A stretch of DNA of 64,000 nt from Escherichia coli (lineage in GTDB: Bacteria > Pseudomonadota > Gammaproteobacteria > Enterobacterales > Enterobacteriaceae). The stretch lies in NCBI RefSeq assembly GCF_030384885.1, contig NZ_CP128613.1; one strand, given 5' to 3'. Below are positions 9,001 through 21,000 of the stretch, in pieces. Every line of letters starts with the position of its first letter. Position 1 is the first letter of the stretch. The position numbers were made by a program.

Positions 9001-12000
9001 CGGTAGCGGAATACCCGACTAAGTCGCGTGCGACGAAAGGGGTTATCTCCATCAAGGTTACCGAACGTAACGGTTTAGTGGTTGGCGCGGTGCAGGTAGA
9101 TGACTGCGACCAGATCATGATGATCACCGATGCCGGTACGCTGGTACGTACTCGCGTTTCTGAAATCAGCATCGTAGGCCGTAACACCCAAGGCGTGATC
9201 CTTATCCGTACTTCGGAAGATGAAAACGTAGTGGGTCTGCAACGTGTTGCTGAACCGGTTGACGAGGAAGATCTGGATTCCATCGACGGCAGTGCTGCGG
9301 AAGGGGACGATGAAATCGCTCCGGAAGTGGACGTTGACGACGAGCCAGAAGAAGAATAATTTCATCCCTTCATGCCAAAAGGGAGTTATCTCCCTTTTTT
9401 GAATTGAAAAGTCCAGGCTGCAAAGTCTGGGCTTTTGTCGTATTAGGGCGCGGTAAAGTTTTGCTGTACCCATAAAAAATGGCTGGCTTTACACAAGGAA
9501 TGTGGCAATGGGTAGTGAAAAAAAGGCGAAAGGCTGGCGGTTCTATGGTCTTGTAGGTTTTGGCGCAATAGTACTGCTTTCCGCTGGTGTCTGGGCATTG
9601 CAATATGCTGGTAGTGGGCCAGAAAAAACGTTGTCGCCGCTGGTGGTACACAACAATCTGCAAATCGATCTCAATGAGCCGGACCTCTTTCTCGACAGCG
9701 ACTCTCTGAGCCAGCTTCCCAAAGACCTCCTTACCATTCCGTTTCTTCACGATGTTCTAAGCGAAGATTTCGTTTTTTATTATCAGAACCATGCCGACCG
9801 TCTGGGCATTGAAGGCAGCATTCGCCGCATTGTCTACGAACACGATCTCACACTAAAAGATAAGCTCTTTTCGTCACTCTTAGATCAGCCCGCGCAGGCG
9901 GCGCTATGGCACGATAAACAAGGCCATCTTTCTCATTATATGGTGCTGATCCAGCGAAGTGGTTTAAGCAAGCTGCTGGAGCCATTGCTGTTTGCCGCTA
10001 CCAGCGACAGCCAGTTAAGTAAAACGGAAATCAGTAGTATTAAGCTAAATAGTGAAACCATCCCGGTTTATCAGTTGCGCTATAACGGCAATAACGCCCT
10101 GATGTTCGCAACTTATCAGGACAAGATGCTGGTGTTTTCCAGCACGGACATGCTGTTTAAAGATGATCAGCAGGATACCGAAGCCACGGCGATCGCAAGT
10201 GATTTGTTGAGCGGTAAAAAACGCTGGCAAGCCAGCTTTGGCCTGGAAGAGCGTACTGCCGAAAAAACGCCAGTACGCCAGCGCATCGTGGTCAGTGCAA
10301 ATTTGCTGGGTTTTGGCTACCAGCGATTAATGCCTTCTTTTGCTGGTGTGCGCTTCGAAATGAGCAACGACGGCTGGCACAGTTTTCTGGCGTTAAATGA
10401 TGAATCCGCAAGCGTAGATGCCAGTTTCGATTTTACGCCGGTATGGAACAGTATGCCTGCAGGGGCCAGCTTCTGTGTGGCGGTGCCTTATTCACATGGT
10501 ATTGCTGAAGAGATGCTTTCCCACATCAGCCAGGAAAACGACAAGCTCAACGGGGCGTTAGACGGTGCTGCGGGGCTGTGCTGGTATGAAGATTCAAAAT
10601 TGCAAACTCCGCTGTTTGTCGGTCAGTTTGATGGCTCTGCCGAACAAGTGCAATTGCCAGGAAAACTGTTTACGCAAAATATTGGCGCGCTCGAAAGCAA
10701 AGCCGCAGAAGGTATATTACCAGTAACCCAGACGCAGCAGGGCGAAGCGCAAATCTGGCGTCGCGAAGTGAGTTCCCGATACGGTCAGTATCCGAAAGCA
10801 CAGGCGGCGCAACCAGATCAATTAATGTCGGATTATTTTTTCCGCGTGTCGCTGGCGATGCAAAACAAGACGATGCTTTTCTCCCTCGATGACACGCTGG
10901 TCAATAACGCGTTGCAAACACTGAATAAAACCCGCCCGGCAATGGTGGATGTGATACCCACTGAAGGCATTGTTCCGGTCTATATCAATCCACAAGGCGT
11001 GGCGAAACTGCTGCGTAACGAAACGCTGACCAGTCTGCCGAAGAATCTCGAACCGGTTTTTTATAACGCCGCACAAACTTTATTAATGCCGAAGCTGGAC
11101 GCTTTATCTCAACAACCGCGTTATGTCATGAAGCTGGCCCAGATGGAACCCGGTGCCGCCTGGCAGTGGCTACCCATTACCTGGCAGCCACTATGAGGCA
11201 CGGGCTGCTGGCGCTGATTTGCTGGCTGTGTTGTGTTGTTGCTCATAGCGAAATGCTGAATGTCGAACAATCGGGGCTGTTTCGCGCCTGGTTTGTGCGT
11301 ATTGCACAGGAACAACTCCGCCAGGGGCCAAGTCCGCGCTGGTATCAGCAGGATTGTGCGGGCCTGGTGCGATTTTCGGCGAACGAGGCGCTGAAAGTTC
11401 ACGACAGCAAATGGCTAAAAAGTAACGGTATAGCAAGTCAGTATTTGCCGCCTGAAATGACGCTAACACCTGAACAGCGTCAACTGGCGCAAAACTGGAA
11501 TCAGGGGAACGGAAAAACCGGCCCCTATGTGACCGCGATTAATTTGATTCAGTACAACAGCCAATTTATTGGCCAGGACATAAACCAGGCGTTGCCTGGC
11601 GATATGATTTTTTTCGATCAGGGCGATGCCCAGCACTTAATGGTCTGGATGGGGCGTTACGTCATCTACCACACCGGAAGCGCCACGAAAACTGACAACG
11701 GAATGCGCGCAGTCAGTCTGCAACAACTTATGACATGGAAGGACACCCGATGGATACCCAACGATTCCAATCCCAATTTCATTGGCATTTATCGTTTAAA
11801 TTTTCTGGCGCGATAGCAGCGTGCTTGTGCCTGTCTCTTGTGGGAACAGGGCTTGCTAATGCTGATGATTCGCTTCCTTCCAGTAACTATGCGCCGCCCG
11901 CTGGGGGAACATTCTTTTTGCTCGCTGACAGCAGTTTTAGCAGCACTGAAGAGGCGAAAGTGCGACTTGAAGCGCCGGGGCGTGATTATCGACGTTACCA

Positions 12001-18000: not shown

Positions 18001-21000
18001 CTAATGCTATGCGAAAGATTTTTCTTCCGTTGTTACTGGTGGCGCTTTCGCCTGTTGCCCATGGCGAAGGTGTGCAGGAAGTCGAGATTGATGCACCGCT
18101 CTCTGGCTGGCATCCGGCAGAGGGCGAAGATGCCAGTTTTTCACAATCGATCAATTACCCGGCGTCGTCCGTCAACATGGCAGATGATCAAAATATCTCA
18201 GCGCAGATCCGCGGCAAATTAAAGAATTATGCTGCGGCGGGTAAAGTTCAGCAGGGCCGGCTGGTGGTCAACGGTGCCAGTATGCCGCAGAGAATTGAAT
18301 CCGATGGTTCATTTGCACGCCCTTATATTTTCACTGAAGGCAGCAACAGCGTGCAGGTCATCAGCCCAGATGGGCAAAGCCGACAAAAAATGCAGTTTTA
18401 CTCAACGCCGGGCGCTGGAGTGATCCGCGCGCGTTTACGGCTGGTTCTCTCCTGGGATACGGACAATACCGACCTCGATCTTCACGTTGTCACACCTGAT
18501 GGCGAACACGCCTGGTACGGTAACACCGTGCTGAAAAACAGTGGTGCACTGGATATGGATGTCACGACGGGGTACGGACCGGAGATTTTCGCCATGCCAG
18601 CACCAGTTCACGGGCGCTATCAGGTATATATCAACTACTATGGCGGACGCAGCGAAACGGAATTGACGACCGCCCAACTGACGTTGATCACCGATGAAGG
18701 ATCGGTTAATGAGAAACAGGAAACATTTATTGTACCGATGCGTAATGCTGGCGAACTGACGCTGGTGAAAAGTTTTGACTGGTGATTACTGAGGTTATCT
18801 TTACTGTCAATGTTCAAGAAAACGCCCGATGACTTTCGCTACCGGGCGTTTTTAAATGTTAATTCAATCGTTCAATCACCATCGCAATTCCTTGACCGCC
18901 GCCAATGCACAACGTTGCCAGACCCAGCGTTTTATCGCGTGCCTGCATTGCATGTAATAGTGTGACCAGAATACGCGCACCGCTGGCGCCGATAGGATGC
19001 CCCAGCGCGATGGCCCCGCCGTTGACATTCACTTTCTCAGGATCAAAGCCCAGTGTTTTCCCAACGGCAAGGAACTGCGCGGCAAATGCTTCATTGGCTT
19101 CGATAAGATCAATGTCTGCCAGCTGCAGCCCCGCCAGTTGTAACGCTTTTTGCGTGGCAGGTACTGGCCCCATACCCATCAATGCGGGGGGCACGCCACC
19201 GCTGGCATAACTTTTAATGCGAGCCAGGGGGGTAAGGCCTGCTGCCAGCGCCGTAGATTCTTCCATAATCACCAGAGCGGCAGCACCGTCGTTAATACCT
19301 GACGCGTTCCCGGCGGTGACAGTACCTGCTTTATCGAAGGCCGGACGCAATGCAGCCAGAGCTTCTTTAGTAGAATCTGGTTTCGGGAATTCGTCTTGAC
19401 TGAAGACGAGGGTTTTCTTCCGGGTGACAACATTTACCGGGACGATTTCGGCTGTAAAAGCACCGGACTCAATTGCGGCAGCCGCTTTACGCTGTGAATG
19501 TAGCGCCAGTTCATCCTGCATTTCGCGGGTAATCCCGTACTCCTTAGCCACGTTTTCGGCGGTAATTCCCATATGATAACCATGGGTGGCGCACATCAGG
19601 CCATCGCGCAGGATTACGTCATAAACCTGTCCGTCTCCCAGACGATAACCAGAGCGCGCTTTTGCATCGAGTAAGTAGGGCGCTAAACTCATATTTTCCA
19701 TACCCCCCGCCACAATGCTCTGCGCCTGACCTGCCTGAATTGCCTGGGCGGCAAGCGCCACGCTTTTCAGACCCGAACCACACACTTTATTGACCGTGAA
19801 TCCGCACACCGTTTCGGCCAGTCCGCTTTTTAACAGTGCCTGACGCGCCGGATTTTGCCCCAGCCCGGCTTGCAACACGTTACCCATAATCACTTCATCG
19901 ATATGTTGTGAATCGATTTTTGCGCGTTCAATAGCGGCCTGAATTACTGTTGCTCCCAGATCGATGGCGCTGGTGGAGGCGAGTGAACCATTAAAACTAC
20001 CGATGGCAGTACGTACCGCACTGACGATGACACAATTTTTCATTTTATATTCCTTCTGTCTGTAAAGTTGCCGTCAGAACAGCGTTAAACCAATGACGAA
20101 AATGACGCCGGAGAAAAGCAGAGCAGTGATGCAATAGCCCATGATGTCGCGGACACCGAGTCCGGCGATTGCCAGTGCTGGCAGCGCCCAGAACGGTTGT
20201 GCCATATTCATCCACTGTTCACCGTAAGCTATCGCCATTACTGATTTACCGAGATCGGCTCCCAGCGCCTGGGCTGCGGGTATCACGAAAGGTCCCTGAA
20301 TAACCCAGTGACCGCCGCCAGACGGAACGGCGAAGTTAATCAGTGCAGAACTAAAGAAGGTCATTACCGGGAAGGTGTCTTTGTTCGCAACATTGATGAA
20401 GAATTCGGTAATGAGTCCGCCCAGACCGGAGTGCTCCATCATCAGTTGGATCCCCGCGTAGAAGGGGAATTGCACCAGAATTCCGGCGGTACTGCGTGCT
20501 GCCGCGCTGATAGCACGCATATAAGCCATTGGCGTTTTATGTAGCAGCAGACCCGCAATCATAAACATCAGGTTGACGGTATTGATGGTGATGTTGAAGC
20601 CATGTTCGCTGAAGTACATCGCCAGGTAAGCGATACCGAGTGCGCCGATGATCAACGTCAGGATGCGACTTTCCTCCAGTCGCTCGGATGGTGGGGCATC
20701 TTTCGGTAGCTGCTTCTGAAAATCAGCCTCTTCCATGAGTAGTTTCGGATCGATACTCACCACGTCGGAGGGTTTTGGCATCATCATGCGGGTGATAAAT
20801 GGCATCACCACAATCAACGCCACAGTGATGAAAATATTAAAACCACTGAACAGAGTATCGCCCACCGGGATCAGCCCGGCGATATGCTCAACCGGGTTGC
20901 CCGGTGTGGCAGCCAACAGAGGCATTGAGCCAGAGAAACCGCCACCCCAGGTAAGAAAACCAATGTAGGCGCAGGCAATGAGCAACGGATAATCAGAACC

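Follow-up and report, generated by a model that had tools for sequence, protein, structure and literature searches.

The yfaATSQP cluster of Escherichia coli with an intact yfaS, a likely five-gene counterpart of the Pseudomonas aeruginosa Mag operon

Gene content of the yfa cluster and the K-12 lesion

The window analysed here is a stretch of 64,000 nucleotides from Escherichia coli (NCBI RefSeq contig NZ_CP128613.1), and all positions below refer to it. The subject is the cluster of five co-directional genes yfaA, yfaT, yfaS, yfaQ and yfaP at 9508-18785, in which yfaS codes for a member of the alpha-2-macroglobulin (A2M) superfamily. The cluster was compared with the operon magABCDEF (PA4492-PA4487) of Pseudomonas aeruginosa, whose macroglobulin is MagD (Robert-Genthon et al. 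2013, PMC3735191; Zouhir et al. 2018, PMC5764988). The five genes are the following.

9508..11196, + strand: yfaA, ATG 9508 to TGA 11196, 562 aa
11193..11816, + strand: yfaT, ATG 11193 to TAG 11816, 207 aa
11750..16354, + strand: yfaS, ATG 11750 to TAA 16354, 1534 codons, no internal stop
16355..18004, + strand: yfaQ, GTG start at 16355, 549 aa
18009..18785, + strand: yfaP, ATG start at 18009, 258 aa

Listing of the open reading frames (ORFs) and direct reading of the sequence gave exactly the arrangement set out in a preliminary description of the window, including a yfaS that is one uninterrupted frame of 1534 codons. The genes yfaA and yfaT overlap by 4 nt (ATGA). The ATG of yfaS lies 67 nt inside yfaT and is preceded, at a spacing of 6 nt, by the Shine-Dalgarno sequence GGAAGGA. 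The GTG of yfaQ starts at the base right after the yfaS TAA (0-nt gap), and a gap of 4 nt separates yfaQ from yfaP. From these overlaps and gaps it follows that the products are probably made in coupled, fixed proportions. The order around the cluster is ubiG, gyrA, yfaA, yfaT, the macroglobulin gene, yfaQ, yfaP and then the convergent genes atoB, atoE and atoA, and the synteny at the yfa locus is the same in K-12. For annotation, the RefSeq/PGAP record of the E. coli 2013C-4282 chromosome (NZ_CP027579.1) was used, which is 100% identical to the window.

A search of 5426 complete E. coli genomes with the cluster as a 9.6-kb query found at least 80% of it in 5178, where the genes are usually annotated as five intact genes. 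For yfaQ, a study of 131,610 E. coli genomes reports a frequency of about 98% (bioRxiv 10.1101/2025.02.11.637708). The cluster is thus part of the E. coli core genome, and the species normally carries an intact yfaS.

In K-12 MG1655, yfaS is annotated as a pseudogene (b4500), as the preliminary description had it, and comparison of the two copies located the lesion. The K-12 ORF meets a stop after codon 1367 and is then open again in the same frame. Codon 1368 (15851..15853, + strand) is TGG (Trp) in the window and TGA in MG1655, in an alignment without indel. A frameshift was ruled out as the lesion by this alignment and by the in-frame downstream ORF; the K-12 defect is a single in-frame nonsense change, W1368 TGG to TGA. 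A 45-mer centred on the K-12 TGA had an exact match in 364 of the 5426 genomes, and all carriers listed as examples are K-12 laboratory derivatives (MG1655, W3110, C600, MC4100 and XL1-Blue among them). In the B-strain C41(DE3), yfaS is intact. K-12 is therefore a natural C-terminal truncation mutant (W1368*) and a non-K-12 strain is advisable for work on the system in E. coli. Published K-12 phenotypes, for example that of a yfaQ deletion, come from a yfaS-defective background.

YfaS, its partner proteins and the Mag loci

Domain searches on the five proteins confirmed the gene names and assigned YfaS to the A2M family proposed in the preliminary description. The Pfam matches of YfaS are MG2 (6.9e-19), A2M_BRD (4.5e-17), A2M (3.6e-12) and bMG10 (1e-5). 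A profile of 59 YfaS-family sequences was aligned by hhalign with K-12 YfhM, also named ECAM, over 780 columns (probability 98%, E ~1e-13). An AlphaFold model was obtained for residues 335-1534 (pLDDT 76, pTM 0.58), of which the domain folds are reliable and the inter-domain packing less so. It contains serial beta domains, a disordered loop at 802-875, a domain of 13 helices at 1051-1315 and C-terminal beta domains. When the model was compared with the PDB by Foldseek, the best match was Salmonella A2M (4U48, E = 1.6e-41, TM 0.54), and the next were 4ZIQ and 4RTD (E. coli ECAM among them), C5, A2ML1, CD109 and TEP1. A sequence search of the PDB gave only a marginal match to complement C5. By its Pfam domains, the ECAM profile and the predicted structure, YfaS is a member of the A2M superfamily.

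The signal peptide of YfaS is predicted at residues 1-38 (11750-11863). A lipobox at I-A-A-C25 was judged unlikely, with merely a 7-residue hydrophobic stretch ahead of it and a canonical ANA/DD type I signal-peptidase site at residue 38. A Tat signal, considered for the RR in the Pseudomonas N-terminal extensions, was ruled out, since E. coli lacks this RR and a long distance separates it from the hydrophobic region.

A YfaT scan of species-representative genomes yielded 80 related loci (L003-L082) from Escherichia, Superficieibacter, Enterobacillus, Yersinia alsatica, Edaphovirga, about 70 Pseudomonas species and one Methylobacter. The five-gene order is collinear in all 80, and a sixth gene, an extra upstream yfaP paralog, is found only in the Pseudomonas and Methylobacter loci. 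The spacing between yfaA and yfaT is -4 nt in 81/81 loci and that between yfaT and yfaS -67 nt in 77-78 of 80; in most loci yfaS and yfaQ are 0-3 nt apart and yfaQ and yfaP -4 to +5 nt. The yfaS frame is open in all 77 other loci where it is readable, the Methylobacter locus (L077) being the sole one unresolved. Translational coupling, which we infer from the geometry of the junctions, is made more probable by its conservation in some 80 species. Proportional synthesis of this kind would be expected if the products are subunits of a single complex.

The identity of YfaT between Escherichia and Pseudomonas (67-77%) is about that between Escherichia and other Enterobacterales (67-80%), and the cluster is patchy within the Enterobacterales. 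Both features would fit a horizontal spread of the operon as a unit, which was reportedly proposed by Budd et al. in 2004; the same paper is said to have been the first to note the Type II, thioester-less bacterial macroglobulin system. It is reference 7 of PMC5764988.

YfaA belongs to Pfam DUF2138 (E = 2.5e-284) and to NCBIfam NF008500 (900 bits), and its identity to the product of the gene at the magB position in the Pseudomonas loci is 43-51%. Inspection and hydropathy revealed a single hydrophobic segment of 19-20 residues at 12-31 of YfaA, with no obvious cleavage site. By the same means, a charged region was seen at the N-terminus of YfaT, YfaS, YfaQ and YfaP, together with a hydrophobic stretch and an AxA-like cleavage site, which agrees with the four signal peptides and the YfaA membrane anchor described before. 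YfaT matches DUF1175 (E = 1.7e-58) and, weakly, NlpC/P60 (E = 0.0026). It aligns with P. aeruginosa MagC (PDB 7BK8), which we take to have an NlpC/P60 fold, at 74.2% identity over 186 aa (E = 6.7e-103), and all 81 sequences compared share its residues Cys55, His148 and His160. YfaQ contains DUF2300 twice (9.8e-46 and 1.2e-41) as well as a SpoIID-like segment (1.5e-5), and is 50-57% identical to the product at the magE position. YfaP matches DUF2135 (5.6e-17); of the two copies in the Pseudomonas loci, the downstream one is 49-59% identical to it and the upstream one 37-45%. With YfaA, YfaQ and YfaP as queries, the PDB returned no sequence match. NCBIfam named YfaA alone and none of YfaT, YfaS, YfaQ and YfaP, and PADLOC linked none of the five to a defence system.

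Judged by identity and position in the operon, YfaA, YfaT, YfaS and YfaQ are the orthologs of MagB, MagC, MagD and MagE, and YfaP is that of MagF, paralogous to MagA. In P. aeruginosa, MagD is located in the periplasm in association with the inner membrane and is complexed with MagA, MagB and MagF. It depends on MagB, which alone in the set has a transmembrane helix (PMC3735191, PMC5764988). After cleavage of its bait, ANRSERG, MagD traps the protease non-covalently (PMC5764988). The function of the gene set, which the preliminary description had called poorly defined, is therefore better defined than that, with trapping, complex formation and inner-membrane anchoring established by experiment for the ortholog set magBCDEF (PMC3735191, PMC5764988).

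The sites of YfaS that would bear on such a function are listed here.

14153-14374, + strand: predicted disordered loop around the bait, YfaS residues 802-875, AlphaFold pLDDT <50
14297..14320, + strand: bait-equivalent segment 850-ATNRSERR-857, aligned with the MagD bait ANRSERG
14900-15694, + strand: TED-like all-helical domain, YfaS residues 1051-1315, 13 helices in the model
14945..14974, + strand: degenerate thioester site, YfaS residues 1066-1075, opposite ECAM PYGCLEQTAS, column by column

A motif search of the five translations for C.EQ found none, in line with the preliminary description, which had noted no CxEQ thioester motif. The thioester-equivalent position of YfaS reads G1069-V-I-N1072, that is GVIN where ECAM has CLEQ. 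Since hhalign sets this position against the TED site of ECAM and the model places a helical domain there, YfaS has a TED-like domain in which the thioester site is degenerate. Most of the mag-type proteins read PYGGVEQTAS at the site and all Enterobacterales members GV[IV]N. Nine Pseudomonas macroglobulins encoded in mag-type operons (L010, which is from P. panipatensis, L018, L026, L027, L039, L045, L049, L053 and L069) have PYGCVEQTAS with an intact CxEQ, and the Cys of CVEQ is the sole Cys within their C-terminal 1200 residues. With these nine members, the equation of Type II with absence of a thioester is not universal. At L017 and L033 a Cys is displaced by one position (PYCGVEQ).

The segment TNRSERR of YfaS aligns with ANRSERG of MagD (MagD aa 847-853), a bait that was defined experimentally (PMC5764988). 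The surrounding segment APG.ANRSER.VK.LERPRRE.VDTAAW hardly varies among the 59 family members, in contrast to classical A2M baits, which are hypervariable. Over the whole protein, Escherichia and Pseudomonas YfaS are 52-56% identical, with hundreds of invariant columns.

The shared gene order, the identity to MagC and the match to the MagD bait together identify the E. coli cluster as a magBCDEF set, of the Type II thioester-less system. With the P. aeruginosa operon it shares the order of DUF2138 anchor, DUF1175/NlpC-P60-like protein, A2M, tandem DUF2300 and DUF2135 proteins, a YfaT that is 74% identical to MagC, the near-identical baits (ANRSERG and TNRSERR), the absence of the thioester Cys, tight junctions, and one protein with a transmembrane helix next to signal peptides on the rest (Table 2 of PMC3735191). 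It differs in that the loci of E. coli and the other Enterobacterales comprise five genes without an upstream magA paralog, and in the thioester site, GVIN in E. coli and GVEQ in P. aeruginosa. Trapping without a covalent bond and an inner-membrane complex that depends on MagB are known from P. aeruginosa only.

Against the Type I A2Ms (ECAM/YfhM and Sa-A2M; PDB 4ZIQ, 4RTD and 4U48), the model points to a common architecture of MG, bait-region, TED-like helical and C-terminal MG domains (Foldseek E = 1e-39 to 1e-41), and the profile alignment with YfaS spans the thioester site. Type I proteins are periplasmic, as YfaS would be by homology. Their sequence identity to YfaS is about 20%, however, and YfaS lacks what characterises them: their CLEQ, and with it the CxEQ motif, is replaced by GVIN, and by inspection there is no strong lipobox. 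The neighbours of yfaS are yfaT and yfaQ, and its partners yfaA, yfaT, yfaQ and yfaP, whereas pbpC adjoins yfhM elsewhere in the genome. Anchoring of YfaS would accordingly differ as well, running via a partner protein, and trapping of Type II is non-covalent (PMC5764988). Two features of Type II and of Mag are found, namely no thioester Cys next to a retained bait region and a partner operon in Mag order. The predicted architecture is also that of the eukaryotic A2M, C3-C5, TEP and CD109 proteins (Foldseek to C5, A2ML1, CD109, TEP1 and A2M, E = 1e-29 to 1e-37), with which YfaS would by homology share a trap triggered by bait cleavage. In contrast to these, YfaS has no thioester and a conserved rather than hypervariable bait, and would be a monomeric, periplasmic protein with operon-encoded partners.

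Start of yfaS and the conserved initiation block

In the RefSeq/PGAP annotation, both of the window strain and of C41(DE3), the macroglobulin coding sequence starts at GTG 11840 (1504 aa). No Shine-Dalgarno sequence precedes this start, and with it the signal peptide loses its hydrophobic core; because the signal peptide is removed, the start is unsuitable for cloning. The start at ATG 11750 lies in a region with two further features.

11736..11759, + strand: yfaS initiation block inside yfaT, TGGAAGGACACCCG-ATG-GATACCC, conserved at the nucleotide level across genera
11737..11805, + strand: candidate long hairpin from an RNAalifold consensus, yfaS Shine-Dalgarno and AUG paired with the last yfaT codons

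The block TGGAAGGACACCCGATGGATACCC spans 24 nt and holds the Shine-Dalgarno sequence, the ATG and the initial codons. In 78/79 loci, from Escherichia to Pseudomonas, it is unchanged, and in 78/79 the ATG stands exactly 67 nt ahead of the yfaT stop. Its codons in the yfaT frame include three rare ones, CGA (77/78), ATA (75/78) and ACA (72/72); CGA makes up 15% of the Arg codons in yfaT overall. A further in-frame ATG, overlapping the yfaT TGA stop, is found in 68 loci and is the MagD start annotated in PAO1. Escherichia has lost this start (ATAG instead of ATGA), so that the upstream ATG alone remains. As seen by eye in the translations, several Pseudomonas species have no other Met before the hydrophobic core. 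The curated K-12 coordinates and the conservation across genera favour ATG 11750 over the RefSeq GTG 11840.

For the overlap hairpin, 97.7% of cells were paired in 58 sequences, compared with 33-47% when the 3' partners were slid. Compensatory changes were found in only 2 pairs, and the single-sequence z-scores were mostly weak, +0.6 for the window and -4.4 at best. We hypothesise that the hairpin couples the two genes by unmasking the yfaS initiation region. Within the block, ACAUGGAAGG resembles the CsrA/RsmA motif; control by RsmA is documented in Pseudomonas only.

Taken together, these observations suggest a broader picture that we put forward tentatively, as possible but short of probable. 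The ATG of the 11750 type, and neither the PAO1 ATGA nor the RefSeq GTG, would be the ancient start of magD and yfaS, kept invariant at the price of rare yfaT codons. The paired block would be unmasked only by ribosomes that finish yfaT, ACAUGGAAGG might serve as a CsrA/RsmA site, and lack of a thioester would not be general for Type II. The conserved block and the CVEQ relatives are small leads on production in fixed proportions and on loss of the thioester.

Proposed role, alternatives and flanking features

The operon, its family, its partners and its likely function are already known, having been described between 2004 and 2021, and as it stands the locus matters little, being a core-genome operon of a known family. 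The region is in all likelihood the five-gene enterobacterial version of P. aeruginosa magABCDEF, without the magA paralog: a periplasmic A2M-like protease trap and its partners. By homology to MagD (PMC5764988, PMC3735191), YfaS would be exported by Sec into the periplasm and held at the inner membrane by YfaA, which is MagB-like with one transmembrane helix, along with the MagF-like YfaP. YfaT (MagC-like, putative NlpC/P60 fold) and YfaQ (MagE-like, SpoIID-like) may link the assembly to the peptidoglycan or tune it relative to it. A protease that enters the periplasm would cut the exposed bait loop near 850-ATNRSERR-857, upon which the cleaved YfaS would change conformation and trap the protease. 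No covalent bond is expected in this step because of the degenerate thioester site (GVIN for CLEQ).

Several observations weigh against a protease trap of this kind. Pfam gave no TED domain match in YfaS, and the GVIN of Escherichia is more degenerate than the GVEQ of MagD-like proteins, so that the trapping mechanism could differ. The near-invariance of the bait hints at a specific or endogenous processing protease, with which it agrees better than with a broad-spectrum bait. Experiments on the YfaS of E. coli did not turn up in the literature searched. MagE of P. aeruginosa has a signal peptide but was located in the cytoplasm (PMC3735191), and YfaQ-msfGFP was undetectable in K-12 (bioRxiv 10.1101/2025.02.11.637708). 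Lastly, a consensus scan of the ~70 nt upstream of yfaA (9441-9507) detected no sigma-70 consensus promoter.

An invariant rather than hypervariable bait segment would also suit a cluster that is mainly a module for envelope or peptidoglycan maintenance. YfaS would then be a scaffold or sensor, and the enzymatic or peptidoglycan-binding work would be done by YfaT (NlpC/P60-like) and YfaQ (SpoIID-like, transpeptidase-like). The invariance of the Cys-His-His set of YfaT in 81 sequences and the SpoIID match in YfaQ (E = 1.5e-5) speak for such a module. MagC, however, reportedly has its catalytic residues in an inactive conformation, though it is said to bind peptidoglycan (a FEBS Lett paper of 2021). 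Deletion of yfaQ in K-12 led to wider cells and a phenotype like that of peptidoglycan and envelope mutants, with a profile near those of mepK, mepS and nlpI mutants, though YfaS is truncated in K-12 (bioRxiv 10.1101/2025.02.11.637708). Type I bacterial A2Ms are linked to peptidoglycan as well, through the synthase PBP1C, but MagD does trap protease in vitro after bait cleavage (PMC5764988). We regard the maintenance module as unlikely to be the main role of the cluster; the two roles are not mutually exclusive.

A remnant that is decaying and functionally dispensable in E. coli, with the open yfaS of the window incidental, is far less probable still. K-12 lacks the last 167 codons of yfaS with no obvious laboratory phenotype, but its stop is limited to one laboratory lineage, while all five frames are open in the window and yfaS is open in the 77 other readable loci. 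Although yfaQ is missing from about 2% of E. coli genomes and 248 of the 5426 complete genomes have no place covering at least 80% of the cluster, about 95% of the complete genomes retain it. The fully degenerate thioester motif and the patchiness of the family among Enterobacterales would fit decay; the 52-56% identity of YfaS between Escherichia and Pseudomonas, with its hundreds of invariant columns, would not.

The protease trap remains the preferred role for an operon that is bounded by the following signals.

9377-9401 and 9407-9440, + strand: two tandem hairpin and U-run terminators after gyrA, by RNA fold
18818..18853, both strands: bidirectional terminator hairpin between yfaP and convergent atoB, by fold, with U-runs on either side

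The intergenic terminators were missed by the terminator scan and were found by direct folding. The region 9360-9445 folds at -31.4 kcal/mol (z = -5.26), and 0 of 200 shuffles were equally stable. We infer that the tandem gyrA terminators (9377..9440) separate the yfa operon from gyrA read-through. From the second of them to the start of yfaA there are only about 70 nt (9441-9507). The hairpin at 18818..18853 has -17.5 kcal/mol (z = -2.05) on the + strand and -20.6 kcal/mol (z = -3.8) on the - strand. No RNA family was found by Rfam in 9300-18900, even at E <= 1.

The locus was also considered as unusually divergent or horizontally replaced in this strain, which was ruled out: its flanks show the same spread of ~95-99% against other E. 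coli. Of the 5426 complete E. coli genomes, only 1-2 reach an identity of 99% or more to the window over the regions tested, among them 2020CK-00188 with 100% over the ato flank, and most are at ~95-99%. The strain therefore belongs to a rarely sequenced lineage. Upstream of the cluster, only about 960 nt of yfaL (4647-5607) remain, with a frameshift and a C-terminal truncation; its K-12 counterpart is a 3.7-kb autotransporter gene between nrdA and ubiG.

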